Below, in pieces: positions 929 to 64,000 of a stretch of 64,000 bases of DNA. The stretch is from Candidatus Latescibacterota bacterium (lineage in GTDB: Bacteria > Latescibacterota > UBA2968 > GCA-2709665). The position numbers were made by a program, and so were the translations under genes. Under the pieces are notes generated by a model that was not told the origin of the DNA, made no database searches, and saw only the letters and a list, made by a program, of their open reading frames with translations. The first letter of the stretch is position 1. Every line of letters starts with the position of its first letter. The stretch spans positions 3,360,001 to 3,424,000 of the forward strand of contig OZ241917.1 in assembly GCA_965203805.1 (NCBI GenBank). Reading direction: 5' to 3'.

Positions 929-934
929 AATTCT

Positions 935-46465: not shown

Positions 46466-48859
46466 ATGAGCATCAATCCCACCGCAGATTCGAGCCAGGA
46501 AACAAGCCCCGTTTCTTTGAAACCCACGGTCATCGCCGCTATTTTCCTCGGGCTCCACGTCCTTCCGCTTTTCTGGCGGCCCAACCCGCTGTGGGGCGTG
46601 GACTTCCTCTTCTACCTGCCCACCACCGTCCAGGCGCTTTTCGTCCTTCTTGCCGTCCTCCTGTTTGTTCCCGGATTTCGCCGGCAAGTCCGCGCCACGG
46701 CGGCCACCCTTCCCTTCTCGCTGTCGGGCCGGAGCCGCCGGGTATTGGTCACGCGGACCCTGCTTCTGTTCATTGCCGTCGCCGCCTTTATCGCATTTTC
46801 CTCCGCCCGCCATTTCCTGGGCGACGGTTATCACGTCCTGGAGAAATTGGATGCGGATACGTGGCACGACGCTTACCGGGCGCCGTTCACCTATGCCGTA
46901 ATTGGTACGCTACACCGCCTGGGCAGCGCCCTGTGGGAAACCGCCGAAAACACGTACCGCGTTTACAGCTACGTTTCCGGAACTCTTTACGTTCTGATTT
47001 CCTTCCCTGTCGCAGCGGTTTTGGGAAAAGACGATTTGGAGAAATCCATCGTCCTGGCGTTCCTCCTGACAACGGGTTACATACAACAATTCTTCGGATA
47101 CGTGGAAAATTATGCCGTCTACCTGCCGGGCTTACTCATTTACATTTTCCTTGGACTACGTAACCTCGAACAACGTATGCCCCTCTTCGTTCCCGCACTG
47201 GCGCTGGGCATGCTCGTCTCATTCCATCGCGTCCTCGCAATTATCGGGCCATCCCTTCTATTTCTGGCCTACGATGATTTTCGTCGCAGACAGGATAGTA
47301 TCTCTACAGGAAGAAACATCCTTGTTACCGCGGCCGCCCTTTGCTGCGTCCCTCTGAGTACCGCGCTTTTCCTGACGTTGAGCGGAGTCGGGTTCGAGGC
47401 CTTTTTCGGCCGAACGGGTAGCGGCGAATTCCTGCCACTCTTCCGGGAACCCGGATTCTATGCGCAGTATCGCATGTTCTCGTTTCCTCATCTTGTTGAC
47501 TTTGTGAATCTGCTACTGCTCTCGGCGCCTGCGGCATGTCTGGCCCTATTCCTTATGCGGAAGGAAATATTGGGCCGCCACGCCTTCCTCGTGTTGTGCG
47601 CCATCGTCCCTCTTTTCTTCACGTTAATTGCAAAAGCCAACATCGGCGCTTTCCGGGATTGGGACGTTCTCTCCCTGCCCGCCCTGCCGTTGACTTTGTT
47701 GGCGGCCGCCGCATTCCTGGAACGAATTCCCAACCGGGAGCAACGCTTTCACAGCGCATTTCTTGTCTGCGGGGCGGCCGGACTCCATACTGTCCTCTGG
47801 ATTGGTCTCAATGCGAGCGCCGGGCCCGCGGAAGCACGGTTTGCCAGTCAGTTGGGCAGACTCACCGGCCACGCCAGCGCCACCGGCTGGACCACCATGG
47901 CGAAGTTCCATCGACAGCAGGGAAATACGTCATCGGCGATCGAGGCATATAAACGAGCGCTGGGCACCGATCGGACCAATCCCTACCGATGGTTGAGTTT
48001 TGGTGCGGCTCTTAGAGAGATGGGCCGGCATACGAGCGCTATTGAGGCCTTCAAGAAAGCCATCGAACTCCGACCGGACATGGCGGCTTCATACATGAAC
48101 CTGGGAGCGGCATACAGCGATCTCGGCCAGGTCGAAAAAGCCATCGAATACACGAGGGAAGCCATCGCTATACAGCCGGGCAACGCCACGGCGCACAGCA
48201 ACCTCGGCGCCATTTACAGCAAGGCCGGGCAAGTCGCGAAGTCGATCAAACACCTCGAAAAAGCCGCCGCGCTGCGACCTGACCACGCGGCCACTCTTGG
48301 AAATCTTGGCGCCATGTACCGTGAAGCTGGTAAATATACAAGAGCGATCACGGCCTTGAAGAAAGCGGTGACGATTCAGCCTGAAGATGCCACCGACTGT
48401 TTGAATCTCGGCGTCGTTTACTGCGACGTCGGGCAGTTCGACAACGCCATCGAATACCTGAATAAGGCCCTCGAAATTGACCCAAGCTACGTGTTGGCGT
48501 ACGTGAACATCGGCTATGCATACAAACGCCAGGGAAAGTATCCTTTGGCCATTGAATACTTTGAGAAAGCGCTCGAACTTCAGACAGGCCGCGCACAATT
48601 TCAGACCTTTCTGGTCATTGGCGACACGTACTACAAGATGAGCGAACTCGAAAAAGCGATACCCTATTTTCAAAAGGCCATTCGACTGAACCCCGGCCAC
48701 GGAAACGCACATCTGCTCCTGGGCCTGGCCTACCGAGACCTGAAACGTGGTGACGAGGCCAGGGTTCATTTCGAGAAGACCCTGCAACTCGAGCCCGAAC
48801 ATCCGCAGGCGGCGCAGATCAAACTGTGGATCGAGGGAGTTGGCGAAGGAAGGATATGA
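46466..48859 (+). CDS. Polytopic membrane protein with C-terminal TPR array (paralogue 2)
   Basis: Colinear paralogue of 44048-46324, 39 aa longer (about one extra TPR). Confidence 0.85.
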   Translation: MSINPTADSSQETSPVSLKPTVIAAIFLGLHVLPLFWRPNPLWGVDFLFYLPTTVQALFVLLAVLLFVPGFRRQVRATAATLPFSLSGRSRRVLVTRTLLLFIAVAAFIAFSSARHFLGDGYHVLEKLDADTWHDAYRAPFTYAVIGTLHRLGSALWETAENTYRVYSYVSGTLYVLISFPVAAVLGKDDLEKSIVLAFLLTTGYIQQFFGYVENYAVYLPGLLIYIFLGLRNLEQRMPLFVPALALGMLVSFHRVLAIIGPSLLFLAYDDFRRRQDSISTGRNILVTAAALCCVPLSTALFLTLSGVGFEAFFGRTGSGEFLPLFREPGFYAQYRMFSFPHLVDFVNLLLLSAPAACLALFLMRKEILGRHAFLVLCAIVPLFFTLIAKANIGAFRDWDVLSLPALPLTLLAAAAFLERIPNREQRFHSAFLVCGAAGLHTVLWIGLNASAGPAEARFASQLGRLTGHASATGWTTMAKFHRQQGNTSSAIEAYKRALGTDRTNPYRWLSFGAALREMGRHTSAIEAFKKAIELRPDMAASYMNLGAAYSDLGQVEKAIEYTREAIAIQPGNATAHSNLGAIYSKAGQVAKSIKHLEKAAALRPDHAATLGNLGAMYREAGKYTRAITALKKAVTIQPEDATDCLNLGVVYCDVGQFDNAIEYLNKALEIDPSYVLAYVNIGYAYKRQGKYPLAIEYFEKALELQTGRAQFQTFLVIGDTYYKMSELEKAIPYFQKAIRLNPGHGNAHLLLGLAYRDLKRGDEARVHFEKTLQLEPEHPQAAQIKLWIEGVGEGRI

Positions 48860-48916
48860 ATGCGTGACGGATCGGGCTTACCGGGATGGGCGCGCGGGCT
48901 ACCGGGTTGGGATCGT

Positions 48917-49228
48917 GCCGGCGACGACCCGCGACCGCGCAAGGTGTGCGGACCTCTTAACCTCAATACGACAAAAGCAGCAACGCTCCACCGCGACAAG
49001 ACCTTCCGAATTGGGCCGAAAAGGTCGTCAGGAAGGGAATTTTTTCCGTTCACGTCCAGTGACCTGAAGGATCATGGAAATCAGCAGTTAAATCACCTTT
49101 AATCACTTGCGTATATTCGATTTAACGTCACCGAAGAATGACGAATCATAGTTAAACACCAGCCCCCAATCGATAACCGACACGCGGCTGGTTGAATATG
49201 TACGTGGGCCTTCTCGCGTCGTCACCCA
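48917..49228 (+). repeat. 312-bp exact direct repeat, copy 1 (copy 2 at 63211-63522)
   Basis: Identical from GCCGGCGACGACCC to GTCGTCACCCA at an offset of 14294 bp. Confidence 0.95.
48957..49155 (-). mobile_element. 199-bp MITE-like element, copy 2
   Basis: TTAACCTCAATACG ... CGAATCATAGTTAA imperfect terminal inverted repeats. Same length as the 22008-22206 copy. Confidence 0.75.
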
Positions 49229-51542
49229 ACTTGTGGCGGAGGGACCTTATCGCCGAGCGCAACGACCTCGTATCGACGCTTCCTCTCCTGCGCCAGACCG
49301 TTCCCAACAGATGTTCGTGCGTCAATATCGTGCCTGCGTTCATTGAAAGTTCGACCAGCAGCCGATACTCGATAACGGTCAACCTTACGTCGCGGCCGCC
49401 AAGGGCAACCCGACGCCGTGCGTAGTCAATGGTCAACTCGCCCAGAACAAGGGGCGTCTTCGGCAGACTCTGGACGGTCACCATCGACTTACGCAGCGCC
49501 ACCCGGATTCGGGACACCAGTTCCGTCGGAGAAAAGGGCTTGATTATGTAGTCCGCGGCGCCTGCCGATAACGCCCGGTCAATGGCTTCTTCGTGAGCGT
49601 ATGCCGAAAGAAAGACGACCGGTATGTCCGCGTCATTGAAGACAGTCCGCATCATCTCAATACCGTCGGTCCCCGGCAGAACCAGACCGAGCAGGACAAG
49701 CGAGGGACGGTGTTGTTCCACGAGCCCCGGTACTTCCTCCGGGTCGCCCGTTGTCACCGGCACGAAGCCCACTTTTTTCAGGGCTTCCCGTACGTTGCGC
49801 AACACCTGCGGGTCGTCGTCCACGACCAGGATGGGCGTTCGCCCCGTGCGGTTTCCGCCGTTCAACGCCTGAGGCCGATTCCGACACATGGCGTGGGCAA
49901 TGTCTCCCGCGTTCTCAGCGATGGGTATGGTAAACGTGACGCTGGTTCCCAGACCCACGCCGTCGCTTTCAACCCATATTCGTCCCCCGTGGGCTTCTAC
50001 GATTCCCTTGCAGATGGCCAGTCCCCACCCTGATCCCTCGGCGTTGCGATGCCCCTCCTCCGTGTTGTAAGGGACAATGTTGCGAAATATGTGCGGCAGG
50101 CGCTCGGCTGAGATTCCTCGTCCCTTGTCAACCACGCAAAAAGCCACGTGCATTCCCTTCTGCGAGGCAGTTATCCGTAGCGGTGAATTCTCAGGTGAAT
50201 GCCTGCCCGCGTTCGAAAGCAGATTCACAAGAACCTGCCTGACACGCATCCGGTCCGCGTTCACCGGCGGGAGTTCGGGCGGCAGCTCAATCAGAATGTC
50301 GTTCTCGCCGCCACTGCTCAAGAACGTGTTACGGGCGCTGTCCACCAGTATGGTAACCGGCATGGGTTCGGGATTGACCTGAAGGGTACCCGTCCTGATA
50401 CGTCCGACGTCCAGCAGGTCGTTGACCATTTCGCTCATCTGATCGGCGTGTTGATTTATGATGCGGAAAAACTGGTCGATCTCGGACCTGCCCAGAGCGA
50501 GACGATCACCCAGCACCATTGCGGCGGATCCCTTGATGGCAGCAAGCGGCGCCATCAACTCGTGGCTCACAATGGCCAGAAAATCGGACCGCTGCCGTTC
50601 CAATTCCTCCAGGAAAGTTGTGTCCTGTACCGTCACGACAATGGATTCCACGCCCCCATCTTCCAATAAGATGGGGGTAAAATTGAGCAGAGCCGTGACC
50701 CGATCCCCGTTCGGACCTTCGACGATGATTTCTTCGGAACGCACTGACGCGGCGCTACCAAGCACTTTGGTTACAGACATCTCCGCGGAAGAAAGCTCAC
50801 GTCCGTCGGCGCGGCGAACCTTTACATTCTTGAGAATTTCTTCAAGCGAACGATTCTGTATCTGCAGGACATGCATGATCCTTGCCGACTCGCGGTTGGA
50901 CGAGATCACGTCTCCGGTCCTGGCGCTGAAGACCGTGACACCGATCGGCGACGTCTTGACCAACGCTTCCAGGTCCGCCCTCGCACGCTGTTCGTCCCGG
51001 TATCGCCGCACGTTGGTAATCATCAACGCCGCATGGGTGGAGAACATCACCAGCATCGTTTCATCTTCAGGAGTGAACGCCCTGCCTCCTTGCTTCTCCG
51101 CAAGAAAGAAAGTACCGACTCGCTCGCCACGGTGGTGCATCGGCACCGCGAGAAACGTCAATGAAGAACTCGCCGGCATTGGCGGACGGAACTCGGGCAG
51201 ACCCAAACACCGAATATGGCTGTTTAAATCCTGCAATCGCAGTGGCTCCTCAATAAAACCGAAGTGTCTGAAGAGTACCTCGTTCTCCCGCGACTTGCAT
51301 ATCTGTTGGGCTTGACTGCGAGACAGTCCGGACACAAGACAGTCCTTAACCCGCCCATCGTCTTCCAACAGTGTCATCATCCCGTACCTGGCGTCAGTCA
51401 AGGATCGGGTGCTGTCCAGAATGGTCTGCAATATGGCCGTGGAGTCGATGTCTTCGTTGATATGGGAGAAGGTCTCGACAATGCGGTCCAAGCGTTCTTG
51501 CAGTTGCTCTACCTCTCGTTCCAGGTCCCTTGGTGCGATCAT
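49152..51542 (-). CDS. Cytoplasmic hybrid sensor-regulator: GAF-PAS-HisKA-HATPase-REC-OmpR wHTH
   Basis: FTPEDE (GAF), PAS, SHELMAPL (H-box), NLLSNA, DKGRG, GWGLAIC, VVDDDP and KPFS (REC), LTVIEYRLL and IRSLRHKLGDD..PRVGYR (wHTH). No TM segment. Confidence 0.92.
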   Translation of the reverse strand: MIAPRDLEREVEQLQERLDRIVETFSHINEDIDSTAILQTILDSTRSLTDARYGMMTLLEDDGRVKDCLVSGLSRSQAQQICKSRENEVLFRHFGFIEEPLRLQDLNSHIRCLGLPEFRPPMPASSSLTFLAVPMHHRGERVGTFFLAEKQGGRAFTPEDETMLVMFSTHAALMITNVRRYRDEQRARADLEALVKTSPIGVTVFSARTGDVISSNRESARIMHVLQIQNRSLEEILKNVKVRRADGRELSSAEMSVTKVLGSAASVRSEEIIVEGPNGDRVTALLNFTPILLEDGGVESIVVTVQDTTFLEELERQRSDFLAIVSHELMAPLAAIKGSAAMVLGDRLALGRSEIDQFFRIINQHADQMSEMVNDLLDVGRIRTGTLQVNPEPMPVTILVDSARNTFLSSGGENDILIELPPELPPVNADRMRVRQVLVNLLSNAGRHSPENSPLRITASQKGMHVAFCVVDKGRGISAERLPHIFRNIVPYNTEEGHRNAEGSGWGLAICKGIVEAHGGRIWVESDGVGLGTSVTFTIPIAENAGDIAHAMCRNRPQALNGGNRTGRTPILVVDDDPQVLRNVREALKKVGFVPVTTGDPEEVPGLVEQHRPSLVLLGLVLPGTDGIEMMRTVFNDADIPVVFLSAYAHEEAIDRALSAGAADYIIKPFSPTELVSRIRVALRKSMVTVQSLPKTPLVLGELTIDYARRRVALGGRDVRLTVIEYRLLVELSMNAGTILTHEHLLGTVWRRRGSVDTRSLRSAIRSLRHKLGDDARRPTYIFNQPRVGYRLGAGV

Positions 51543-51739
51543 CGAATTCTCCTACGACGGTGGCACGGCTCCTGTCTCGCGAGCCTTCAGCAGACAGGTC
51601 ACGAGACCTGCTGCCTCCACCCTTCCGGTTTACAATCATTCCCGCCTGGCGAAATTTCACTCATAAATAACCGTTATCGGCCAACTTTCAACAGATGCAT
51701 CACGCGTTTATGTGTAAGTTTGTTCTTATAGAAATCAAT

Positions 51740-51826
51740 CGCGGCGATTCAGGCGTAAAAGCCTGATCAAGCGTGATGGATCTATTGAAATAATATAGCA
51801 TTGCGGATTCCACATGTCAATTGGAA
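51740..51826 (+). promoter_or_regulatory. Shared upstream element, part 1, copy A (11-bp-periodic direct repeat TATTGAAATAA-TATAGCATTGC)
   Basis: Homologous to 55309-55380 and 61012-61058. Confidence 0.6.
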
Positions 51827-52033
51827 CGCCAGGAAGCGAGTGCTCTCCGGTTTGCCATTTGGATCGTATGGGTGTTCTCGAAATCGTGTCAGCATCAAAC
51901 GATGGATGAAGGAGGGTTTGTATTCTTTAGGGTTGGATTTCTGGTCCTTTGCACTACCCGATGAGAGAGTTCATTTGGCGTTCCACGAACGGTAGAGAAA
52001 TGTCAATAACGTCGTAAGTGGAGGTATCGTTGC

Positions 52034-52276
52034 ATGTTTAAAACGTTGACCCCAAAACCACTTCCCGTAGTACTGCGCACTCAAGCGTGGCCCACGGGAA
52101 CGACCGATCGGCAGAATGTCATTGTGCTGACGTTAGGGACAATTGATCCCGCAAATGAGGAAACTGAAATCAAGGATATCGTAGTTGCGATGACCCTACG
52201 GGAAGCAGCAGGGCTGATTAAAACGCTGGCGGGGGAGATATACGGGGTGGTGAGTCACTACGGGAAAGCAAGGTAG
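52034..52276 (+). CDS. Small hypothetical protein (80 aa)
   Basis: GGAGGT RBS and a globular-looking alpha/beta sequence. No recognisable family. Confidence 0.55.
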   Translation: MFKTLTPKPLPVVLRTQAWPTGTTDRQNVIVLTLGTIDPANEETEIKDIVVAMTLREAAGLIKTLAGEIYGVVSHYGKAR

Positions 52277-52333
52277 CGAATGCACTGGTAGACTCGCTGT
52301 GCATTATTCGCCGACGACACTAAAGCAGGGCAG

Positions 52334-52432
52334 GCAGGTTGACGAACAAGCACGGATTCCTGCTCCGGGGCGGTCAAGCGGTGTGACGCGCATGCAAAGG
52401 GCAGCCGACAGTAACGCATACTTCGGCTACAC
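52334..52432 (+). promoter_or_regulatory. Shared upstream element, part 2, copy A
   Basis: Homologous to 61079-61180, with an exact 24-mer GGGCGGTCAAGCGGTGTGACGCGC (52368 and 61113). Confidence 0.55.
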
Positions 52433-52670
52433 CTGCTTCAACGGCAAGTTGGGGTTGTGATCGTCTTGGAGCTTCCAACTATCGTGCTGAAAGTTCGGGC
52501 GAGCCCTTAGGGTCCATCTCAGGAAGTGGAAAGACGGAATGAGTTTATGGATAAGTCGTATATCAGCATTGGCCGAAAGCCATGGCCAACAATCATCCTT
52601 GTGATTGGTGCGGTTTTAATTCCGATCTCGCGAATTGGAAATCAATCAACTCCGGAGGTAAGGTGGCATT

Positions 52671-53660
52671 GTGTTCTTGTTTTATCTGTTATTGACGCTT
52701 GATGTTCATGCTCAACTCCCCGAAAGGGAACTACCGATTCTTCGATTACCTGATGGTCAACCGATCATGGTCCGCATGGCCGAGGATAAGAGACTCTGGG
52801 TATACAACACGACTACGGGCGCCGCAATTAGCCCCTTGCAGGATTTTCGTGAGCAGGTCGCCGGACGACAACCCGGTGGCACTACCGTGTTGAACGAACG
52901 CCCTCGGGACATGGTTGGAAGGTGGGAGTATAAGCCGCATTCCACCAGGGACACTGTTAGTGTCTTAAAGCTATGGGAGGATGGACGTTATCAAAAATAC
53001 TTCCGAACCGTTTCTACTTTATCGATACGACGTGTTTTAATTGATACGTGGGGGGCTGATTCAATACGAATGGATATTGTGGCTGACTCATTGGCTCTGG
53101 AGGATTCAAAATTCGATGAATTTCTCAGGGGAGAGGGTCAGATATTTACGCTGGAGTCTGTCGGTACCTGGGGTGTTGAAGATGATTCACTTCGTGCTTT
53201 CCCCAAGCGATATGACTTGTCGGTAAATAATCTACAGAAGGCCAAAGTGGGAGAATTCTGGTCTGAAGTTGTTCCACTTGTTATGCCTGAAGATGGTGAA
53301 GACTGGACAGGTTTTGTTGCGCTCTTCTATACGCTGTTGAACCTCAGTTATGAACTGAATGTCCTATTTGAATCCTCAAATAATCTGGGCGCACCTTCCG
53401 TGGGAGAATCTAACAGAACCGTATTGATACTGACAGATGCCGAAGGTGGCGAACAGTGGCTGACACAGACTCATTGGAACCCGGCTTCGGCAGATGTTAA
53501 TGCGGATCGCGAAGTTAATTTCACTGACTTTGTGATATTTGCTCGAGGGTTCGGCCAGGAAATCGAGAACCTGGTATTTGATGAACGTTTGGATCTTGAC
53601 GGAGACGGGAGCATCGCATGGAATGACTTTCTGATTTTCGCTCAACAAATGGGTCGGTAA
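52671..53660 (+). CDS. Secreted protein with C-terminal EF-hand/dockerin-like pair
   Basis: Short signal-like N-terminus (..VHA-Q). C-terminal ADVNADREVNFTDFVIFARGFG and LDLDGDGSIAWNDFLIFAQQMG. Confidence 0.75.
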   Translation: MFLFYLLLTLDVHAQLPERELPILRLPDGQPIMVRMAEDKRLWVYNTTTGAAISPLQDFREQVAGRQPGGTTVLNERPRDMVGRWEYKPHSTRDTVSVLKLWEDGRYQKYFRTVSTLSIRRVLIDTWGADSIRMDIVADSLALEDSKFDEFLRGEGQIFTLESVGTWGVEDDSLRAFPKRYDLSVNNLQKAKVGEFWSEVVPLVMPEDGEDWTGFVALFYTLLNLSYELNVLFESSNNLGAPSVGESNRTVLILTDAEGGEQWLTQTHWNPASADVNADREVNFTDFVIFARGFGQEIENLVFDERLDLDGDGSIAWNDFLIFAQQMGR

Positions 53661-53692
53661 ATGAGGCAGGAAAGACGATTCTGGTTCTTTGA

Positions 53693-54460
53693 GAGAGGAT
53701 CGTCTCTCGAGTCTTCAGCAGGCAGGTAACGAGGTCTTGCCGCGTCCAGCCTTTTGCGGTTCACGAACATTCCCGCCTGGCGATTTTCCACGAACAGGTA
53801 GACCTGAATGGGGATGGGGTTATAGATTTCGCTGATTTTTTGTCCTTTTCAAAGTTATTCGGAACAACGGTTACTGATACCGGCCAGCCGGATTTAACCA
53901 TAACCATGCTCTCGATCGATTTTATAGTTTCCGATCCTGATTCTTCAGCCAGTGTGATTGGTATTGATGTACACAATCGCGGTGACAAAAATTCGCCTCC
54001 CGCCACGGTACGATTTTATCGCTCAAATGATGAAACCATTAATCGAGAAGATACCGAACTCGGAGAAGCCGAAGTTCCTGCTCTAGCGGCTCACGATTCC
54101 ATCTATGTAGGTTTCGATACAAAGCCTCTGGACCCAGGGGAGTATTATTTCGGCGCCTGTGTGGACGCTGTAGACGATGAATCAAATACCGAAAACAACT
54201 GTTCAACCTCATTCAAGATCACCGTATCCAGGAAGACCGATCCCACCGAACCCAGGAGCCTGGGCAAGTGTGAAGCCCGAATGGTAGTAAAACCCAATGA
54301 GGAATGTACGCTTACCAACGGGGTATTTCGCAATATTGGTGGAGGTTGCTATAACTACACACCGTTTGGTTCCGGACGATTCTGCTCTGCCAGTTTTAAC
54401 TTGAATGGGTTCCAGGGTACCCGGGTTGGTGATGATTTTCGAATTGACGTTGTGCCGTAA
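53693..54460 (+). pseudogene. 5'-truncated gene: EF-hand motif, CARDB-like Ig domain and Cys-rich tail
   Basis: The frame is open from 53693 with DLNGDGVIDFADFLSFSKLFG upstream of the first start codon (TTG 53840). It then encodes PDLTI..VHNRGD..YYFGACVD..DESNTENNCS (CARDB-like). No signal peptide. Confidence 0.6.
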
Positions 54461-54790
54461 TTTTGTGCCCGGAAGCGGCAGACAACCGGCGTTCGCTGAT
54501 TTCAAACAAAGGATCACTGCGGCATCTTAAGGTGATACCGCACTCAGATCAGAAATCGGCGCGTTTTTGTTGATGAAAAGGAATTGGCTATAGCCACAGT
54601 TGAAGAACTCACTAATCTGCTAAAGAAACACAAGACAGCACCGATCGTTAACCAAACCCGTTATCTATATAAGCAGACAGTCGTTCGCATTGGGGAATAC
54701 AATGGAGGTTCTGGACAAATACGGAAGTAGTTACAAACACCAATCCACTGACCTTGGTGAACATATCCTTGATTAGCCTTAATTCGATAC

Positions 54791-55275
54791 GTGCGCCGTG
54801 AAAAGGCGCGTAACTCCAGTGGGTGAGAATCCCGCCCGACGAAATTTGCTGCCGCCTACCTCCGCCGGATGCTCGGCAGGCATCTCCGTAACAACCGGAG
54901 AGGGGACGCGGGTAACGACATCTCCGAAGCTTCCGGTGTAGAGGGTCGCAATGCGACTTGACGAGTATGTGCGTCGTCAATGTCGGCTTTTTGGACCTGG
55001 ATACGGGGAAATGAGACCTTTAGCGGCGATTATTGCCAAAAGGGCGGGATCCGGTCGGGCGCTGAAACGAGCAACGGCGCCGGGCGCTTCGCTCCAGGGC
55101 TACCGGACTCCGTGGCCTGGCCGAGATCCCGTCCAGGGCGCGAGGGGCAGACATCCGGGTCAGTATCAAGAACCGCACGGGTCGTCATCCGGAGATTAGC
55201 TGTGGCTCAAACCTGGTTCCGCGGCCTGGGCCGCACTATTCATCGTTCGCCACCGTGACCGTCGTATATGGCTAT
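54791..55275 (+). mobile_element. Degraded group II intron remnant (5' domain I plus possible 3' end of the RT gene)
   Basis: GTGCG start, GCGCC/GGCGC hairpin, GGGTGAGAATCCC and GGTAAC..CGAAGC. Downstream QTWFRGLG..stop followed by GACCGTCGTAT. Confidence 0.5.
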
Positions 55276-55308
55276 TGACGTGTTAATTTGTCTTGAAAAG
55301 AGATGAAA

Positions 55309-55380
55309 CGCGGCATTGCGGGTAGAAACGGCTAATTTAGCGTGATGTATCTGTTGAAATAATGTAGCAATTCTGATTCT
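55309..55380 (+). promoter_or_regulatory. Shared upstream element, part 1, copy B (TGTTGAAATAA-TGTAGCAATTC)
   Basis: AGCGTGATG.ATCT.TTGAAATAAT.TAGCA shared with 51770-51800, and TAGCAATTCTGATTC shared with 61030-61044. Confidence 0.6.
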
Positions 55381-55515
55381 ACGACTTCAGGGATAGTCTA
55401 CCCGGGAACTCAATTCGCCTTTGATCTTCGGGGAAAATTCGATTTCAGGCTGCCGAAGAATGAAGAATCAAATTTGGAGTGTGTTTTATGCCATTTTATA
55501 GTCCAGGAGGGCAAA

Positions 55516-56610
55516 ATGTCCAATAAAATCTCCGCGTTATTCTTTCTTGTCTTCGTCTTTGCCGCTCATACGTACGCGCAATCCGACTATCTGGTCTATA
55601 CCGTTGGGGAAAAAGCGGAAATCCCGCTGCCCGAAAAGATCGATCTTATCGAGACGAAGTATCTGGTGAATTTGAAGTGGGGATCGTATTCTGGGCCGCA
55701 ATCCAGAGTTATGGTGTTGCCGATAAAAAATCTCGCCGCGCGGCGAAGGGTGTCCGTGAACGAAATCGAAGCGATAGTTATAGACGTGATCAATCAGACG
55801 AACCGTTTTCGCCTGGTCGAACGTCAGGTTCTCAACTCGGTCCTCGGTGAGCAGGACCTGGGAGAATCCGGACGCCTCGCCACGCCATCGGCGGCAAAAA
55901 TCGGCAAGGTGCTTGGAGCGCAATATATGATGAAGGTCGTCATCACGGACTATGAAGAGAACGTATCGGGCGGTAGCGGTGGCGGCATCGGTGGCGTATT
56001 AAAAAAAGCGGCGGCGGTGGGTGGCGTCGGGATTTCGAAATCCGAAAGTCGAGTCGGAATGGCATTTCGCCTGATCGATGCAGAGACGAGCGAAGTGTTA
56101 TTCTCGAAACAGATTGAATCGAGAATCAAAAAATCCGGACTGAAAGTCGGTGGCGGCCTTCTATTTGGAAGGCGAGCATTCGGTGGCGCCGTATTCTCCA
56201 AATACGCCAAGACACCCATTGGTCAAGCGGTCATTGCCGGGGTTAACAAGGGCGTCTTTGAGCTGGTCAAACAGATTGGCAGCCTGCCCGCTACCGGTCG
56301 CGTTATCAAGGCCGCAGGCAACAAGGTCTGGATAAACATCGGCAATGAGGTCGTTTCGTCGGGCGACGTGCTCAAGATCGAGTCAAAAGGCGAGGAATTG
56401 ATCGATCCGGATACCGGAATCAGCCTGGGCAGCGACGACACGGAAATTGGCACGATACGTGTGAATATGGCTCAGGAGAAGTTCAGCATCGCCGAAATCG
56501 TCTCCATCAGTGGGACGGTGAATCGCGGAGACAAGGTGATTTCTACGGTACCTCCGCCGCGTATCGAGTTTGCAGATCGGTGGGAGAAACCGAAACGGGG
56601 CCAATTCTGA
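55516..56610 (+). CDS. CsgG/HfaB-family protein with FlgT-like C-terminal domain
   Basis: Signal peptide, RFRLVERQVLNSVLGEQDL..AAKIGKVLGAQY, RLIDAETSEV, and LIDPDTGISLG in the C-terminal domain. AGGAGG RBS. Confidence 0.82.
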   Translation: MSNKISALFFLVFVFAAHTYAQSDYLVYTVGEKAEIPLPEKIDLIETKYLVNLKWGSYSGPQSRVMVLPIKNLAARRRVSVNEIEAIVIDVINQTNRFRLVERQVLNSVLGEQDLGESGRLATPSAAKIGKVLGAQYMMKVVITDYEENVSGGSGGGIGGVLKKAAAVGGVGISKSESRVGMAFRLIDAETSEVLFSKQIESRIKKSGLKVGGGLLFGRRAFGGAVFSKYAKTPIGQAVIAGVNKGVFELVKQIGSLPATGRVIKAAGNKVWINIGNEVVSSGDVLKIESKGEELIDPDTGISLGSDDTEIGTIRVNMAQEKFSIAEIVSISGTVNRGDKVISTVPPPRIEFADRWEKPKRGQF

Positions 56611-56670
56611 GGGCTTATAATCCCTACGACTTCAGTTTCAAAAGCAACCTCCAATTTGCAGTGAATGATT

Positions 56671-56925
56671 GGGCAAGTACTATTTTTAGTTGAAAAACGA
56701 GAGGCGGTTTGGTCGGCGGAGTAGGCCTCTTGAGCGTCATGATCGAGTTGGATCTGAGTGTGGGAAGAAATCGGTATCCTTTGATTCTTCGCAATCGTGG
56801 CTGTATATCCAACAGCGCGGCTGCCAACCACCGATATCGCTGATCGGAGTTGTTCCATCGTTTTACATTCCGTTTGCGCTGTGCGACCATAGCGTTGAGG
56901 GATTCGATACGGGTAGCAATTGGCC
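56671..56925 (-). mobile_element. IS256-family remnant (transposase C-terminus and right end)
   Basis: IESLNAMVAQRKRNVKRWNNSDQRYRWLAAALLDIQPRLRRIKGY, followed by TTTCAACTAAAAATAGTACTTGCCC. Confidence 0.75.
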
Positions 56926-56956
56926 CTCTTGTACGTCCATATTCAATCATTAGCTT

Positions 56957-56997
56957 TATTTCGTCAATGCGGCGTGAAAAGGCGCATTGACGAAATA
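56957..56997. other. Perfect 15-bp-stem hairpin
   Basis: TATTTCGTCAATGCG-GCGTGAAAAGG-CGCATTGACGAAATA. Confidence 0.7.
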
Positions 56998-57113
56998 TGG
57001 TCTGAAGGGAGGTAGTGATGTAGAAGCACAAACAGGACACGTGGCCTTTGGTTTAGCCTGGCTGCCCGATGTTGGCACAGCAGATGCGGATGTTGATAAA
57101 TAAGGAGAATAGT

Positions 57114-57857
57114 ATGCGATGGTTTGTTCTAATAGTGCTGGTGGTGTTTGCATCAGTTTTAATCGCCCAGGAATCGACGGTTGAACACATCCCCGGAGAT
57201 ATAAACCGTGACGGAACGGTTGACTTTCAAGACTTTCTTGAATTGGCGAAGAATTTTGGCAAAACTGGCCCCCCACCAACACCTGTGACGCCTGATACGG
57301 TTACAGTCGAAGTCGAGGTAGAAGTAATTGTACGAGACACAGTTCGTATTCGGGAGACTATCCAAGTCCCCGGTCCGAGCGCACGGGTACAACGGGCTCA
57401 GAAGATGTTTGGTTATTGGACGTTTTATTGGGCCACATTAGAAGATCATTATCTCTTTGGACACACCTTTCAGGAAGATGAAACCGACAAGACAAAAGAA
57501 GTATTATACAGCGGTGTGAGTGATTTAGGGACAGTCGCTTTTGGCCGGTGGAATACGGACAGACAGCAGTATGGTTTTCTGCACCGTATAATTCAAGACG
57601 GGCAAAAGTACTATTATCTGTTTGACTGGGAAACCGGCAATGGTGCTATATACTCGATCGACGGCGATAATTCATACAAGATTAGTGATTTCAAAGCTGG
57701 TAGTGGCCGAAAACCGGCATACGGGGGATTCAAAGAATGGGTCACTGCGGCCAGCAAAGTGGTACCACAGACGAACCATGGACCAGCTCCACCTGAAGTT
57801 ATCGCCGAGGCGATGGATCTTCAGAGAGAACTAGAGGCAATGGGAGTCAATTGGTAG
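57114..57857 (+). CDS. Secreted protein with N-terminal EF-hand/dockerin-like motif
   Basis: AAGGAG RBS, signal peptide, GDINRDGTVDFQDFLELAKNFG, then a Pro/Thr-rich linker. Confidence 0.8.
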   Translation: MRWFVLIVLVVFASVLIAQESTVEHIPGDINRDGTVDFQDFLELAKNFGKTGPPPTPVTPDTVTVEVEVEVIVRDTVRIRETIQVPGPSARVQRAQKMFGYWTFYWATLEDHYLFGHTFQEDETDKTKEVLYSGVSDLGTVAFGRWNTDRQQYGFLHRIIQDGQKYYYLFDWETGNGAIYSIDGDNSYKISDFKAGSGRKPAYGGFKEWVTAASKVVPQTNHGPAPPEVIAEAMDLQRELEAMGVNW

Positions 57858-57888
57858 AATACCAATGGCTATTCAACGGGAGGGTGAG

Positions 57889-58386
57889 ATGAAACGGTTT
57901 CTCGTAGTAATGTTGTTGCTTGCAGGTATTCCGAAATTCGCAATGGCTCAAGAATCAACGGAAGTGGCTATGGGCGCTCGTCTCGGCTTAAGTAATGTCT
58001 CTGGCCTTTTTGCCTTGGAACTACAAGGGGCAAATATAATGGGCAGTGTGGGTTGGATGCCTGCTTTCGGCGATGGAGCAGAGAGTATATTCAGACCGCT
58101 ACGCATTGCTTTGGCTCTGCGTGCTAAAGTGAAGAAAATCGGACACAGTCCGGTTCTGAGTATTTCGTTTATGACAAGGTATGCCGGTTATAATTACGGT
58201 ACCGGGGTCAAGGCCTTTCCTTTCTTATCTGCATCCGTTGGCTATCGAATTCTAATCGGTGATAAGGCAGATCTGATCATTGGCGGGGGACTTGGTTTAA
58301 ATGTGGGTCTTGATGAATTGGGAAAGGTTGCCGGACTAAAACGTCTCTGGCCGGCGATTGACCTGACCGTTGGTATTTTGCCTTGA
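57889..58386 (+). CDS. Probable small outer-membrane beta-barrel protein
   Basis: Signal peptide (AMA-Q), Gly-rich amphipathic strands, and C-terminal LTVGILP. Confidence 0.6.
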   Translation: MKRFLVVMLLLAGIPKFAMAQESTEVAMGARLGLSNVSGLFALELQGANIMGSVGWMPAFGDGAESIFRPLRIALALRAKVKKIGHSPVLSISFMTRYAGYNYGTGVKAFPFLSASVGYRILIGDKADLIIGGGLGLNVGLDELGKVAGLKRLWPAIDLTVGILP

Positions 58387-58403
58387 GTTGAGGAGAACCC
58401 GCA

Positions 58404-59381
58404 ATGCGAATACGCAGTATATCCATCGCGATATTATTGGTGAGTTGCGGACCGGCAACCCATGTCACTTTGTCCATAAAACGACCTGCCGAAATACACC
58501 TTGAAGGGATAGATAACCTGGCGATTGCAGAGATTAAAGGACGTGGTGAAGGCAAACTGGCAACGCTAGGTGATTTATTGCGGATTGGTGCTGGCGGCGA
58601 ATCTAAACGCGCTGGGAAAGAACGGTTGGTCGCGGAATTACGTACCGCTCTTGTTGCGTCTGAACGGTTCAGGTTGTTGAGTCTTCACGCACAATTGGAC
58701 TCAACTGCCAGACAACGAACGGCGGCGATTTACGGCGAAATCGTGCGCTACGATTATGATGAAGATTTAGACTGGAAGGACGAAAAGCGCACAAACAAGA
58801 AAACCAAAGTGACGAGAACTGTGCGAAAGTTTACTCGTACTGGTACTGTAGATGTTGGAATCACACTTCGTGTGTTGGATCTGACTACCTCGCGCATTCT
58901 GGCTGAACGTCATTTCCGTGACCGAAATAGTACCACCAACAAGAGTGAGGACACGAAACCCAATGCAATTCGCTCAGGTCCTCTATTCGATAGAGCCCGT
59001 GCAAAAATTGTCCGAAATTTCGTACGTATGATATCTCCGTATGTAGAATTCGTACGGGTTTCTTTCGAGACGGACAAAGAAATACCCGAATTGGCCCAAG
59101 GGTACGCATTGGCAAAGGTCAATGATTGGGATGGGGCGATCGATATCTTTAGATCGGTAGTAGCGACTCAGCCCCATTCTCCCAAGATTCATACAGCACA
59201 TTACAATTTGGGCCTCTCCTATATGTACACGGATCGGTTCGATGAGGCCAGATCATCTTTTCGCAATGCGCTCCTGGGCAAGTCTTCCGATAAGTACGAA
59301 CGGGCAATGACAGAGTTGACAAAGCGTATTAGTGACAAACAACGGCTCATCGAACAGGGTGAAGTTCCAATCGAACAATAA
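58404..59381 (+). CDS. Lipoprotein, CsgG-like fold with C-terminal TPR
   Basis: Lipobox LVS-C, RVLDLTTSRILAE, and AHYNLGLSY TPR. Confidence 0.72.
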   Translation: MRIRSISIAILLVSCGPATHVTLSIKRPAEIHLEGIDNLAIAEIKGRGEGKLATLGDLLRIGAGGESKRAGKERLVAELRTALVASERFRLLSLHAQLDSTARQRTAAIYGEIVRYDYDEDLDWKDEKRTNKKTKVTRTVRKFTRTGTVDVGITLRVLDLTTSRILAERHFRDRNSTTNKSEDTKPNAIRSGPLFDRARAKIVRNFVRMISPYVEFVRVSFETDKEIPELAQGYALAKVNDWDGAIDIFRSVVATQPHSPKIHTAHYNLGLSYMYTDRFDEARSSFRNALLGKSSDKYERAMTELTKRISDKQRLIEQGEVPIEQ

Positions 59382-59556
59382 GGGGGTGTCACGGATCGCC
59401 CTGCGCGCAATCGGAGAAGGGTAATTTTCATCTTGAACGTGGGTTAGGTAGGCCATGTCTGGCTTGCCGAACTCCCGTCACCTTTACCGGATGCCGCGAC
59501 CATTGCCAGTGATCAAACCCGCAACAACGACGACCGCCCCAGCAGTTTCGGGCGGT

Positions 59557-60018
59557 GGGGAAATACAAACTCATCATGGATGGCAAACCCCGATACTTTA
59601 AAGAACAGGCCATCGACAACTACATCAAACGCAAACAGAGTGAAGCCCTGCCTGAACACATCAGAAACCGACGCAATAACGTCGAAGCCAGCCTCTTCCA
59701 GTTGAGCTATTACACCCGAAACGGCAAAACTCGCTATCGTGGATTGATGCCACATCAGCTGTGGGCGCACTGTCGTGGCTTATGGGTCAATCTCGTTCGG
59801 ATCCAGAATTACCTCACCTCACCCACGATGCTCCCCGCATAAGATGCGACTTTTTTATGCATATCCTTGCCCCAAAACCACGCGAGCAACCTCGTAAACC
59901 GCCTCTGTGTTGATGGGCCGCAACCCGATGCACTTTCACCACGCAACGCGACCTCTCAATACACAACACTGACACCTACACACGAAATCTTCCTGAACCC
60001 CCTTCTCGGAGGGGACTC
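59557..60018 (+). mobile_element. 3' fragment of the IS at 935-2757, including its right IR
   Basis: 462 bp matching 2296-2757 with no difference seen. The left part and left IR are missing. Confidence 0.92.
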
Positions 60019-60268
60019 AAGGGTGGGAAAGAAAGTTGGATAAGGAAGCAAATAAGACTCGAAGGCGAAGAATCGGTAATGCCCACCAAAGAGATTTTAG
60101 ATAGAGTCACGGGCGAATTGGATTGGCATTTCGCCGAAGACCATACAGTAACAGAGAGATTCTCCAAAGCCCATGTCGAGTCGGTTCGCTACTAATCTCG
60201 TGAACATCCAGAATAGTCTTCATTGAAAAGTGCAGGGCCTGTCACATCACATCAAAAGGAGGCTCAAC

Positions 60269-60916
60269 GTGTTGCGATTCCTGGTGTTCTCGCTGTGTTT
60301 ATCGCCTGTCATCGCTCATGCAGGATCCACGGTCTGGCCGCACCTGGGCGTGGCCCGTTCTACGATGACCAATATACCGGATGAGGCTGGTGTAACAGTC
60401 AAAGGTCGGACTGCAGCGTCGCTCGGTCTTGCCATCGAGAATTCGGCGTTGCCAGTGTTATTTGGCATCTCCTACACACAGAAGGGGATGTCTGCCGTGA
60501 GTACTGGCGATGACGATTCCTTATTCGGTGAATTTGGAGGCGGCTGGCGATTGGGTTATCTGGAAATCTCGGCACTTGGGAAGTTAGGCACGCCTTTTGG
60601 AACCCAGGCGGAAGGCTACTTGTTGTTCGGTGGGTATGGAGGATTGCAGACCGATTGTGAGTTAAAGATCACAATCGAGGATGCCACGATTGACCTGCCT
60701 TGCGACTCTCCCGACGTTGAGATGGACCACCGCAACAAGAATCGCTTTGGGTTAGTGGTGGGCGCCGGCGCCTCTCAACAGGTCAGCGGTGTGCGCGTGG
60801 CGCTCGCTCTGACCTACGCGTTCGATCTGACGTCTATGTCTCTCGACGATGAGAAGTCGAAGCATCGGACACTTGGAGCCAAGTTGGGGATAGGGATTCC
60901 GTTCGGGAGTCAGTGA
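60269..60916 (+). CDS. Outer-membrane beta-barrel protein (PorT/OMP_b-brl-2-like)
   Basis: AGGAGG RBS before GTG, signal peptide (AHA-G), YTQKG, LGYLEI, and terminal strand KLGIGIPF. Confidence 0.72.
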   Translation: MLRFLVFSLCLSPVIAHAGSTVWPHLGVARSTMTNIPDEAGVTVKGRTAASLGLAIENSALPVLFGISYTQKGMSAVSTGDDDSLFGEFGGGWRLGYLEISALGKLGTPFGTQAEGYLLFGGYGGLQTDCELKITIEDATIDLPCDSPDVEMDHRNKNRFGLVVGAGASQQVSGVRVALALTYAFDLTSMSLDDEKSKHRTLGAKLGIGIPFGSQ

Positions 60917-61011
60917 AACTCTGGATGTTCAGGTCGGCCTGGTGGTGTCATGCATATAAACCCTTTTCAAGTTGGAGTTTGGCATTGGGGAATGTACCTA
61001 CCTTTAACGCC

Positions 61012-61180
61012 CTTGATGTGGAAACAACATAGCAATTCTGATTCAGATGTCAATTGGACCGACACGAAAGCGCGTCCAGCAGGTTGAAGAACAAGTACAG
61101 ATACCCACTCCTGGGCGGTCAAGCGGTGTGACGCGCGTCCGTAAAGGGCAGCCAATGGCGACGCATACCTTCGTTATTCC
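61012..61180 (+). promoter_or_regulatory. Shared upstream element, uninterrupted copy C (parts 1 and 2 contiguous)
   Basis: TGTGGAAACAA-CATAGCAATTC, ATGTCAATTGGA, then GCAGGTTGA.GAACAAG..GGGCGGTCAAGCGGTGTGACGCGC. Confidence 0.6.
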
Positions 61181-61366
61181 TCCATCGGTCGCCGCTGTCC
61201 TGCCGCCCGGAAAAAACGGGCGTGTGCGGAGCAAACCGGCGAGGTTTTTCGGCCGAGTGATTTTTCCGCCGCTGGCTATGGCTCACCACAGCCGAAGAAG
61301 ATATAAAATCTGCCTGAGAATCAACAGCAGGAAACATCTGCTTTTTTTCAAACGAGGGTTTCTAAG

Positions 61367-63136
61367 TTGGCATCCCAAAACGCAACGACGTTGATCGCCG
61401 CCCTCGCGTTGCTGACATTCGTGTCCCGCGCGGCCATCGGCGCCGGCTCAAACGGTGGTACTTTGACAGCGCAGGCGATCCCCGGTAATGCCATTGCCGA
61501 TGACACTTCGACTCTGCCCGACTTCGATGGCGACGGGACGGTCGGTTTTGGCGACTTCGTAAAGTTCGCGGCGAAGTTCGGCCTGGGTCAGGGCGATGAC
61601 GGATATGACGCGGATTACGATCTGGATAGCGATGGCAGTATCGGGTTTTCAGATTTTCTGATCTTTGCGCGTGCCTTCGGTAAAAAAACGCCGCCCTCAA
61701 ACGGCGGTCCATCGGACGACCCCTTTGCCCGGCGTTGGAACAACATCCCGGCCCAACCGTGGTGGCGGGAGTCTGCGCCGTATTCATGTGCCTCAGAGGC
61801 AAAGACCACGTCTCCGTGGATTGCGAACGGGCTGCAGGACCTCGGCGGGGCCGACTCTCTATCGTTGATCCGGTACTTCGGGAACGGGAGCTATTTGCGG
61901 TATGGCCACATGGGCTTTTCCGGGTGCACACCGCTGGACAAATACCCCGACCGCTTCCACAGGGACCCACCCGCAGACCCGACCTACTACTCCCTGGGTA
62001 ATCTGGACATATGGGTAGACGTTGCCCGGGTGCCGTCGGATGCCTCGGGATGGTCCGATGACGATGGGACTCGTGTCGATATGACTATGAAGAAAGCCGT
62101 CCAACTTTTGAATCAGTACGTCGCTCCCTATTTCAGGAGAATCTCGCAGGACAATCTCCGCATGACCTTTCATGAAGGCAACGAATTCAACGTCGGGGGT
62201 GACGGTGGGCCGGGCAATGCACAACTGCAGCAATTTAAACTGGTCGGAGCCTGTTTGGACGGCTGCGAGTACGGGGCCCCGGGGGGATTGAACCGCATCC
62301 TGCTCAATGACGTAGCCTCCGATTCCGGAGGCGAGGCGTACAATGGTTGGGCTCGCTTTGGGCTCGCAAGCTTCCGGAGCGCCTACATGGAAACGATCGT
62401 CCATGAGATGGGTCACGGGTGGATGGCGTGGCCGCACTCCTATTCGGAGGTGCGATTGCGGGAAAATCCCAGTGATGAAATTGACCCTCCCAACCCCTAT
62501 TCCAACCTGTTCGACATTATGTCGAGCCTGGCCTTGAACCCGATATCGAGCTGGGACCATGAGATGATGCCATCGACCCTGGCCGTCAATCGCTACGCCG
62601 CGGGCTGGATCAAACCTGAAGACGTGGCGTTGCACCTGGTTGAAAACGCCACCTACACCTTGGTCAAACCGCGGGAAAGCGGGTATCAATTCCTGGTTGT
62701 GCATTCCGGGCGTCCCAACGCTTTCACGACGTTGGAGGTTCTGGAAGAACGTCCCTCTAAATTTGCGGCGAATATAGACGTGTACGACCCCTCCATCTCC
62801 GGGTATCGGCCCCGCAGGTACGACGGTGTGCTGGTCAGCCGTTACGATCAGACCGCCGGCACGGGCACCGAAGCCCGGCTCGGTCCGGCGCTCTATCATA
62901 AGGATAATCCGAACTTATTCGAAGACATGCAATTTGGTAAGGATGACTACTCGCTCATCGCGGACGGCGAGAAACGGGACATCGGCGGCGGTGTCACCGT
63001 TTCCGTTAGCAAGAACGGGGACGGCAGCTATGATGTCAACGTGAGCGGAGGAAGAGTAGCGAATTTTGAAGTATGGTGTTCACCCTTCTGGTGGTCGGGC
63101 GAATACGACACCGGATGCTATCTGGACGACGGCTAA
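61367..63136 (+). CDS. Secreted zinc metalloprotease (M6-like metzincin) with N-terminal EF-hand/dockerin-like pair
   Basis: Signal-like N-terminus, DFDGDGTVGFGDF and DLDSDGSIGFSDF, HEMGHGWMAWPH, FDIMS Met-turn, and RYAAGWI. Confidence 0.82.
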   Translation: MASQNATTLIAALALLTFVSRAAIGAGSNGGTLTAQAIPGNAIADDTSTLPDFDGDGTVGFGDFVKFAAKFGLGQGDDGYDADYDLDSDGSIGFSDFLIFARAFGKKTPPSNGGPSDDPFARRWNNIPAQPWWRESAPYSCASEAKTTSPWIANGLQDLGGADSLSLIRYFGNGSYLRYGHMGFSGCTPLDKYPDRFHRDPPADPTYYSLGNLDIWVDVARVPSDASGWSDDDGTRVDMTMKKAVQLLNQYVAPYFRRISQDNLRMTFHEGNEFNVGGDGGPGNAQLQQFKLVGACLDGCEYGAPGGLNRILLNDVASDSGGEAYNGWARFGLASFRSAYMETIVHEMGHGWMAWPHSYSEVRLRENPSDEIDPPNPYSNLFDIMSSLALNPISSWDHEMMPSTLAVNRYAAGWIKPEDVALHLVENATYTLVKPRESGYQFLVVHSGRPNAFTTLEVLEERPSKFAANIDVYDPSISGYRPRRYDGVLVSRYDQTAGTGTEARLGPALYHKDNPNLFEDMQFGKDDYSLIADGEKRDIGGGVTVSVSKNGDGSYDVNVSGGRVANFEVWCSPFWWSGEYDTGCYLDDG

Positions 63137-63210
63137 CCGAGTGTCCTCCCAATCCTTCAGATGAACCGGTTGTCCAATTCCGCGACTTTCTGAAAGGACA
63201 AAGAACAGCC

Positions 63211-63522
63211 GCCGGCGACGACCCGCGACCGCGCAAGGTGTGCGGACCTCTTAACCTCAATACGACAAAAGCAGCAACGCTCCACCGCGACAAGACCTTC
63301 CGAATTGGGCCGAAAAGGTCGTCAGGAAGGGAATTTTTTCCGTTCACGTCCAGTGACCTGAAGGATCATGGAAATCAGCAGTTAAATCACCTTTAATCAC
63401 TTGCGTATATTCGATTTAACGTCACCGAAGAATGACGAATCATAGTTAAACACCAGCCCCCAATCGATAACCGACACGCGGCTGGTTGAATATGTACGTG
63501 GGCCTTCTCGCGTCGTCACCCA
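63211..63522 (+). repeat. 312-bp exact direct repeat, copy 2 (contains 199-bp element copy 3 at 63251-63449)
   Basis: Identical to 48917-49228. Confidence 0.95.
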
Positions 63523-64000
63523 GCTTGCGGCGCAGGGTTTTTATCGCCGAGCGCAAGGGCCGCGTATCGCCGCCTTGCTTGCGCCAGACGGTTCGCAACA
63601 GATAGTCGAGCGTCAGAGTCGCGCCGGCGTTTGCTGAAAGTTCGACCAGCAGCCGGTACTCGGTGTCGGTCAATCTCAAGTCGCGTTTGCCAATGGCAAC
63701 CCGGCGGCGCGCGTAGTCAATGTACAAATCGTCCAGAACAAAGGGTTTCTTCTGCACATCCTGCCGGGTCAGTGTCGCCTTTCGCAGCGCCACCCGGATT
63801 CTGGATACCAGTTCGGTTGGAGAAAAGGGCTTGACCACGTAGTCCGCGGCGCCTGCTGCCAACGCCCGGTCAATGGCCTCTTCGTGGGCGAATGCGGAAA
63901 GAAAGACGACCGGTACGTCCGAGTTTTTGAGGAAATTCCGCATAATCTCGATACCGTCGGTTCCCGGCAGGACCAGATCGAGCAGGACCAGTTGGGGACG
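63446..64000 (-). CDS. Paralogue of the hybrid regulator (REC-wHTH C-terminus; 5' part lies beyond the window)
   Basis: RPQLVLLDLVLPGTDGIE..KPFSPTELVSRIRVALRK..LTDTEYRLL..PRVGYRLGAGV. The frame is open to the window edge. Confidence 0.9.
   Translation of the reverse strand, partial: RPQLVLLDLVLPGTDGIEIMRNFLKNSDVPVVFLSAFAHEEAIDRALAAGAADYVVKPFSPTELVSRIRVALRKATLTRQDVQKKPFVLDDLYIDYARRRVAIGKRDLRLTDTEYRLLVELSANAGATLTLDYLLRTVWRKQGGDTRPLRSAIKTLRRKLGDDARRPTYIFNQPRVGYRLGAGV

Follow-up and report, generated by a model that had tools for sequence, protein, structure and literature searches.

An exact 312-bp repeat with a miniature transposable element at the 3′ ends of two old regulator paralogues in a Latescibacterota chromosome, probably a patch copied from one gene to the other

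Ectopic (interlocus) gene conversion between dispersed bacterial paralogues is known from the duplicated tuf genes, rRNA operons and antigenic-variation loci. Here we analyse a locus of a Candidatus Latescibacterota bacterium that can be compared with these cases. Within a window of 64,000 nucleotides (the whole stretch analysed, positions 3360001-3424000 of a single-contig 5.87-Mb chromosome, G000), the genes of two paralogous regulators, A and B, end in an exact direct repeat of 312 bp, which contains a 199-bp miniature inverted-repeat transposable element (MITE) and brackets an island of low GC content. The identity is best read as a recent, one-off, non-reciprocal and lineage-specific copy of the 3′ end of B onto A, resembling gene conversion, a reading to which we give a probability of roughly 0.7. 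The likeness lies in a short identical tract within an older, diverged paralogy, in a template locus and an overwritten one, and in needing no site-specific recombinase. On the other hand, one end of the tract here is devoid of homology, so the event looks one-sided, and a heterologous MITE would have been carried into the recipient.

Other described systems share single traits with the locus. Bacterial MITEs include the Correia elements of Neisseria and Nezha of cyanobacteria; the present element is like them in its size (about 200 bp), its non-coding sequence, its terminal inverted repeats, its dozens of dispersed copies in full and internally shortened forms, and its insertion at a gene end, but it forms a sequence family of its own with TTAA-type ends. 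Integrative elements that enter the 3′ end of a gene restore it by a copy of their own and are flanked by direct att repeats. Here, too, direct repeats containing a gene 3′ end flank a segment of lower GC; unlike those elements, however, this one has no integrase, its 312-bp repeat contains a MITE, and relatives keep the gene order without the repeat. A run of same-strand accessory genes recalls integron cassette arrays, although no IntI-type recombinase is adjacent, the genes carry their own promoter modules, and the 312-bp pair is the sole long repeat. Lastly, direct repeats could drive copy-number change as in RecA-dependent tandem amplification (gene accordions), yet no copy-number variation is seen in contigs, and there are only two units, 80% identical. 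An earlier interpretation made from the letters alone (the sequence-only reading) had favoured such a view, and proposed an integrase-free, accordion-like array of regulator-plus-cargo units that enter or leave by recombination at their shared 3′ end.

The repeat, its mobile element and the two regulators

The two copies of the repeat (Table 1) are 100% identical, with 0 mismatches over 312 bp, in direct orientation and spaced by 14,294 bp. Repeat positions 1-40 are 3′ flank, with genomic matches only at these two loci (BLAST, chromosome); positions 41-239 are the dispersed 199-bp element; positions 236-238 are the regulator stop codon, and positions 239-312 comprise the last 24 codons and 2 nt. 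To the left, ungapped identity between the A side and the B side falls at once to 16-30%, that is, no homology. To the right it is about 0.84, then a 3-nt indel follows, and then about 80%, inside the region coding for the Trans_reg_C domain (winged helix-turn-helix, wHTH). The sequence-only reading had thus described the repeat correctly: its exactness, its make-up at both copies (40-bp flank, 199-bp element, last ~25 codons) and the abrupt stop of identity within the wHTH coding region, beyond which the paralogues are diverged. Were the identity due to chance, the coding part would have a likelihood of 0.8^74 (about 7e-8) and the element one of 0.91^199 (about 7e-9), so chance does not explain it. 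A BLAST comparison of the 312 bp with the chromosome gave 79 rows: these two copies, the only ones in 5.87 Mb, one coding-only match (a regulator fragment at 5.08 Mb) and 76 further matches to the element. The 40-bp flank weakly resembles the sequence directly 3′ of the stop codon in orthologues, which reads AAGGTCAGAGGGCCGCAG, and is probably the regulator's original 3′ untranslated flank.

The 199-bp element is a MITE. Its 76 further matches are 72-91% identical, 44 of them near full length, so that 78 matches on both strands are dispersed over the chromosome. We aligned 46 near-full-length copies, both repeat copies included, with 30-bp flanks: similarity starts and stops sharply, the flanks are unrelated, and the interior is well conserved. 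The copies end in terminal inverted repeats, TTAACCT(C/T)AAT ... ATCA(T/A)(A/G)GTTAA, and the consensus end TTAACCTTAAT is, save for one position, the reverse complement of the other, ATCAAGGTTAA. The outer 4 bp are mostly TTAA or TTAG; unusual ends match each other in some copies (TGGA/TGGA, TCAG/TCAG) and differ in others. At the regulator genes, the TAA stop codon sits in the terminal TTAA of the MITE. Among the other copies, identity reaches at most 88.9% in a full-length one and 91.2% in a short one; the shorter form measures about 143 bp, and one short-form pair, 99.3% identical, suggests recent MITE activity. Transposition is not the source of the identity between the A and B sides, because the identical tract includes 40 bp and 73 bp of unique flank. 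When 44-64 kb were compared with Rfam at E up to 1, neither the MITE nor the promoter segments had a match, the single hit being the group II intron fragment below threshold (Table 1), and folding of the MITE was no better than that of shuffled sequences on either strand (z 0.13 and 0.46). An autonomous partner with the ends of the MITE was not identified; only a 1,826-bp insertion sequence (IS) was examined, and its ends differ. A further copy of the MITE lies at window positions 22008-22206, on the minus strand.

Regulator A contains HisKA, HATPase_c, REC and Trans_reg_C domains, all above the Pfam cut-offs, as are REC and Trans_reg_C in the part of B that lies in the window. Such domains in one polypeptide would make A an OmpR-family two-component regulator fused to its kinase. 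Both regulators are in frame. Their proteins are 74% identical over 800 aligned residues, and their genes about 80% overall (55-88% per 60-nt window, mostly 0.7-0.88, across the gene), with 67% identity in about 290 bp upstream. The genome has two further paralogues, one full-length (52% identity, at 0.53 Mb) and one a fragment. In a maximum-likelihood tree of 15 regulator sequences, B pairs with the second regulator of G006, a genome of the same genus (support 99/96), and A is sister to that pair (96/93); the first regulator of G006 groups with those of G004 and G009. The pairing of B with the second G006 regulator dates the duplication of A and B before the split of the two species, and A and B are ancient paralogues. 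In sliding-window comparisons of A, B and their orthologues, made to look for a mosaic, A and B show only a mild excess of identity, at alignment columns 675-1050 (0.79-0.87, against 0.68-0.83 across species); it is perhaps the trace of an earlier conversion, though not a decisive one.

The two paralogues also differ in motifs of their signalling domains, compared among up to 14 relatives. In the receiver, A has Gly (LVLLGL) where B and 10 other relatives have Asp (LVLLDL; LVVMDL in G003), at a position that precedes an LVLPG motif (window 49722-49724 region). We take this Asp to be the phospho-acceptor, the position being assigned from PhoB/CheY receivers. In the H-box, A reads HELMAP and most relatives HELRAP, Met replacing a conserved Arg; B keeps both the receiver Asp and the H-box Arg. 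Having Gly for the receiver Asp, regulator A is probably blind to phosphorylation; as a paralogue it may have become independent of phosphorylation or be in decay. Proteins of the same GAF-PAS-kinase-REC-wHTH architecture in full length, 44-51% identical over ~790 residues, are found in records of metagenome-assembled genomes (MAGs) labelled Caldilineaceae, Acidobacteriota, Spirochaetia, Dehalococcoidia, Acidimicrobiia and others; the next matches are partial and at most 40% identical. Such an occurrence may reflect transfer between phyla in a shared habitat. A scan of JGI metagenome contigs with regulator A yielded no relative above 51% identity and hence no additional close strain.

Relatives of the locus and the origin of the repeat

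Congeners show what the locus looks like without the repeat. In G006 two regulators are separated by 12 kb, both the MITE and an exact patch are missing, and a homologue of the gene for the 589-aa protein (Table 1) is directly upstream of the first regulator. Its sequence is continuous from window position 51835 to 61018; since, besides, a 12-bp exact repeat bounds the low-GC cargo, this cargo is a separate 9,233-bp insertion in the promoter module. The stop codons of the orthologues in G004, G009, G006 (both regulators), G013 and G016 are followed by non-MITE sequence. In eight other regulator-family regions of congeners the longest exact direct match is 77 bp, against 312 bp here, a figure that leaves out a tandem array of 81-bp period in G013. 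BLAST self-comparison aligned paired copies in six of the eight regions, uniformly at 75-87% identity; the G002a regulator pair is absent among the BLAST rows listed and was covered by the exact-match search only. This search was added because a long high-scoring BLAST alignment could hide a patch, as it does in G000.

Sequencing runs were compared as assembled contigs: X11 and X12 from one sample, X13 from another sample with the same organism label, and X4 from a coral metagenome, whose contigs were aligned at 90% likeness or more. The X11, X12 and X13 contigs are 100% identical to the window, island included, without variation. At each of the four edges they break off about 30 nt into the repeat; they show 0 differences and have similar depth, and because they reach that far in, both left and both right flanks truly join the same sequence. 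Their depth is equal across island and flanks (20-27 in X11). X4, a close relative, shares the B-side repeat and differs on the A side over exactly the span of the repeat. Its contig 23 covers 61183-63299 (95.6%) and its contig 24 63338-63848 (99%), so that each edge of the B-side repeat is spanned, and its contig 20 follows 49219-49941 at 98.5%, continues with 249 other letters that replace 48897-49218, and then enters the sequence of the neighbouring tetratricopeptide-repeat (TPR) gene at 87-90%. We considered whether the 249 letters could be a short-form MITE with flank, and dropped the idea as the lengths misfit (266 expected).

A recent copy of the 3′ end of B onto A explains why the identity is perfect and ends abruptly in the coding region, why both loci have the MITE within unique flanks, and why X4 differs. 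As expected for a conversion, the 312 bp are 100% identical and the other 2.6 kb about 80%. The duplication predates the tract: the tree places it before the split of G000 and G006, and X4 is without the A-side patch; relative to X4 (a single metagenome, read from contigs), the donor is kept and the recipient overwritten. The repeat is not an entry or exit scar. Mechanistically, the 3′ end of A would have suffered a break or a stalled fork, and B would have served as template for its repair. Strand invasion would have taken place on the homologous coding side, with a switch point at about 49219-49228, and synthesis would have run across the stop codon, the MITE and 40 bp further, to be resolved without detectable homology at 48916/48917. 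As the left junction has no homology, we infer one-sided homologous repair followed by an illegitimate join. An imperfect direct duplication of 16-17 nt (GGGCTTACCGGGATGGG, GGGCTACCGGGTTGGG), seen by eye at 48874-48912, adjoins the left junction of the A-side patch and may be a footprint of the joining event.

Several points weigh against this explanation. Homology is not found on both sides of the tract, the left flanks being 16-30% identical and the right ones in 80% paralogy; the tract thus does not qualify as a classical two-sided conversion, nor does the model account for its left junction. Another 20 nt at A that lie outside the repeat (48897-48916) also differ from X4. The 249 letters of X4 are known by length and not by sequence, that contig reaches no more than 87-90% identity in its TPR part, and more than one strain seems to be present. 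The polarity from B to A, as well as its recency, rests on the contigs of this one metagenome.

If the patch had instead passed from A to B, or if both ends had been overwritten from a third source since lost, the repeat would look the same within the genome, where the two copies are symmetrical and the patch bears no mark of donor or recipient. However, X4 has the junctions of the 589-aa gene with the flank and MITE, and of the MITE with B, as they are here, and not their A-side version; no third copy of the flank exists in the genome. We consider these variants improbable, if the least improbable of the alternatives. An assembly artefact, that is, a collapsed or chimeric repeat in a chromosome derived from a metagenome, comes to mind since the records of relatives are MAGs, so that this genome may be one too, and since its CheckM-type contamination is 9.3%. 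It is nonetheless hardly credible: in three runs, four separate contigs enter the repeat from the four flanks without a difference and at similar depth, the repeat is shorter than any long read, and both regulators are in frame. The same very low credence goes to an ancestral duplication that already included the MITE, with the 312 bp held identical by purifying selection, for instance for an RNA or terminator function. The well-conserved interior of the MITE copies would fit such a constraint, but synonymous sites and the 40-bp flank are identical as well while the rest of the gene is 20% diverged, orthologues do without the MITE, and the element neither folds better than shuffled sequence nor matches Rfam.

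The proposal of the sequence-only reading makes the 312-bp repeat a recombination site at which units of a regulator and its cargo would be inserted or excised as 14.3-kb circles. Perfect direct repeats of this length are adequate for homologous recombination, excision would leave B intact, and part of the proposal stands: the locus does hold two units made of a minus-strand regulator and plus-strand secreted-protein genes, and cargo does vary between relatives, in G006 and X4, at short-repeat junctions. The island ORFs (open reading frames) that were scanned had no Pfam match to a recombinase family, PF00239 has no match in the genome, and PF00589 is matched at window 9789-10289 and at two distant sites only, in keeping with the term integrase-free: neither within the island nor next to it is there a tyrosine or serine recombinase. 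The repeat as a recombination site and the continuing array do not stand. In X4, where the A-side repeat is missing, the TPR gene, A, the 589-aa gene and B follow each other in this order, and G006 has its two regulators without an exact patch; an empty site with its junction in the repeat was found in neither, both keeping two regulators. Cargo junctions in relatives lie at 51813/61047 and 52367/61113, away from the repeat, so entry and exit at the shared 3′ end find no counterpart there. A and B are 80% identical outside the patch, there are two repeat copies, no third adjacent regulator and no further unit, and contig depth is even. Altogether, we regard insertion and excision at the repeat as quite unlikely.

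The array has two units. It had been expected to continue past 64 kb; instead, the sequence beyond shows B completed with two plus-strand genes of its own. Past B, on its upstream side, come a second dispersed repeat, an ORF of 203 aa and a 600-aa protein, both on the plus strand, and then unrelated genes. No third copy of the 312 bp is found in the chromosome and no third regulator within 20 kb.

Cargo, promoter modules and neighbouring genes

Between the repeats lie one regulator (A, minus strand) and plus-strand ORFs with signal-peptide-like N-termini (by eye), in DNA of low GC: the values are 0.46-0.53 from 51 to 61 kb, while most of the window has 0.56-0.69. This low-GC, same-strand set of exported-protein genes with mobile-element debris had been anticipated from the letters, and GC, ORFs, IS and intron fragments bear it out. 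Copies related to the group II intron fragment occur elsewhere in the genome. The IS fragment in the island is identical to full copies, which points to a recent, IS-linked truncation; a full copy of this 1,826-bp IS lies at window 934-2759, and the chromosome has seven copies, 100% identical.

Table 1. Features of the locus in window coordinates
Feature	Position	Strand	Basis or remark
Repeat copy 1 (A side)	48917..49228		putative patch recipient
Repeat copy 2 (B side)	63211..63522		putative patch donor
40-bp flank, A side	48917..48956	-	specific to two loci; weak likeness to orthologue 3′ flanks
MITE copy, A side	48957..49155	+	46-copy alignment, genome-wide matches, direct reading
MITE copy, B side, identical, at regulator B end	63251..63449	+	
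Regulator A, 796 aa	49152..51542	-	Pfam GAF-PAS-HisKA-HATPase_c-REC-Trans_reg_C
Regulator B, 3′ part in window	63446..64000	-	full gene genome 3423446-3425875, 809 aa
Putative shared upstream (promoter) module of A	51543..51835	+	homologous to B upstream region
Left 12-bp exact repeat ATGTCAATTGGA	51814..51825	+	bounds 9,233-bp cargo insertion
Right 12-bp exact repeat ATGTCAATTGGA	61047..61058	+	bounds 9,233-bp cargo insertion
Low-GC cargo	51826..61046	+	GC 0.46-0.53; not at corresponding site in G006
D6a, conserved leader/promoter segment copy, type upstream of 589-aa gene	52315..52425	+	
329-aa protein, C-terminal dockerin-type calcium-binding repeat	52671..53660	+	PF00404, E 4.7e-5
206-aa CARDB-domain protein	53840..54460	+	PF07705, E 1e-10
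Group II intron domain 1-4 fragment	54817..54985	+	RF02003, 38.4 bits, below gathering score 49, E 1.6e-5
CsgG-family lipoprotein or secretion channel, 378 aa	55474..56610	+	PF03783, E 7.8e-29
Three genes: 262 aa (dockerin-like motif), 173 aa, 325-aa TPR lipoprotein	57069..59381	+	signal peptides by eye
3′-terminal 464 bp of 1,826-bp IS	59557..60020	+	100% identical to seven full copies
228-aa protein, signal peptide (by eye)	60230..60916	+	no family match
D6b, partner of D6a	61060..61173	+	80-83% identity, conserved in G006
589-aa secreted protein, N-terminal dockerin/EF-hand-like repeats, HEMGH zinc-protease motif	61367..63136	+	weak M6-family match, E 1e-4

Parts of the sequence upstream of A are found again ahead of the genes for the CARDB, CsgG and 589-aa proteins and of the cargo of B (module positions 51543-51835, 55260-55473 and 61035-61173, and upstream of B), and a 20-nt core of the upstream module (2 mismatches or fewer) is found genome-wide only upstream of A and of B. 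The recurrence of these segments suggests a shared promoter or operator module. The 12-mer that bounds the cargo insertion has 2 matches in the window, spaced by 9,233 bp, against 0.02 expected by chance. In X4, window position 51813 is joined to 61047 and 52367 to 61113 (the latter in contig 21); cargo presence therefore varies, at promoter-segment repeats. The locus is best described as a pair of regulatory modules, in which a soluble regulator that fuses kinase, receiver and DNA-binding domains goes with the shared promoter module and with genes for secreted or surface proteins. What changes its cargo is IS activity and recombination at short promoter repeats, and not the 312-bp repeat.

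The neighbourhood holds some further features. To the left of the island, tandem paralogues at 44048-46324 (758 aa) and 46466-48859 (797 aa) carry C-terminal TPR arrays and are 86-90% identical in parts at the nucleotide level; their N-terminal 470 residues have no family match. The PF00589 match at 9789-10289 is a tyrosine recombinase domain in a 509-aa open frame on the minus strand, 39 kb from the island. Beyond the window, the second dispersed repeat represents a second MITE family of about 255 bp (L031 2248-2505, genome 3426248-3426505), with copies elsewhere at 92-93% and a 35-nt core that occurs dozens of times. The 600-aa protein (L031 3412-5214) combines a Cache-like domain with a sorting domain of T9SS type A, which scores 37.9 bits (cut-off 23).

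Implications

The finding is one of ordinary genome repair and recombination, and not of a new gene-cassette system. As a by-product, the 14.3-kb segment could now be deleted or duplicated by RecA-type recombination between perfect direct repeats, and nothing shows that this occurs or is used. One could imagine the repeat as a switch, RecA excision and re-duplication toggling or dosing the secreted proteins, the CsgG channel and regulator A in a symbiont population, and the patch having been selected for it; we think this quite doubtful. More generally, the locus calls for caution, since a striking exact repeat around a low-GC island can arise from patch repair between old paralogues.

Besides, the locus adds a new family of TTAA-ended MITEs, from a marine bacterium that is not in culture and has relatives recorded as Latescibacterota, and would be an example of a MITE spreading through homologous copying instead of transposition. 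It also outlines what may be paired regulatory modules, in which a fused regulator, a shared promoter module and a secretome go together, and in which cargo would be reshuffled at short promoter repeats.

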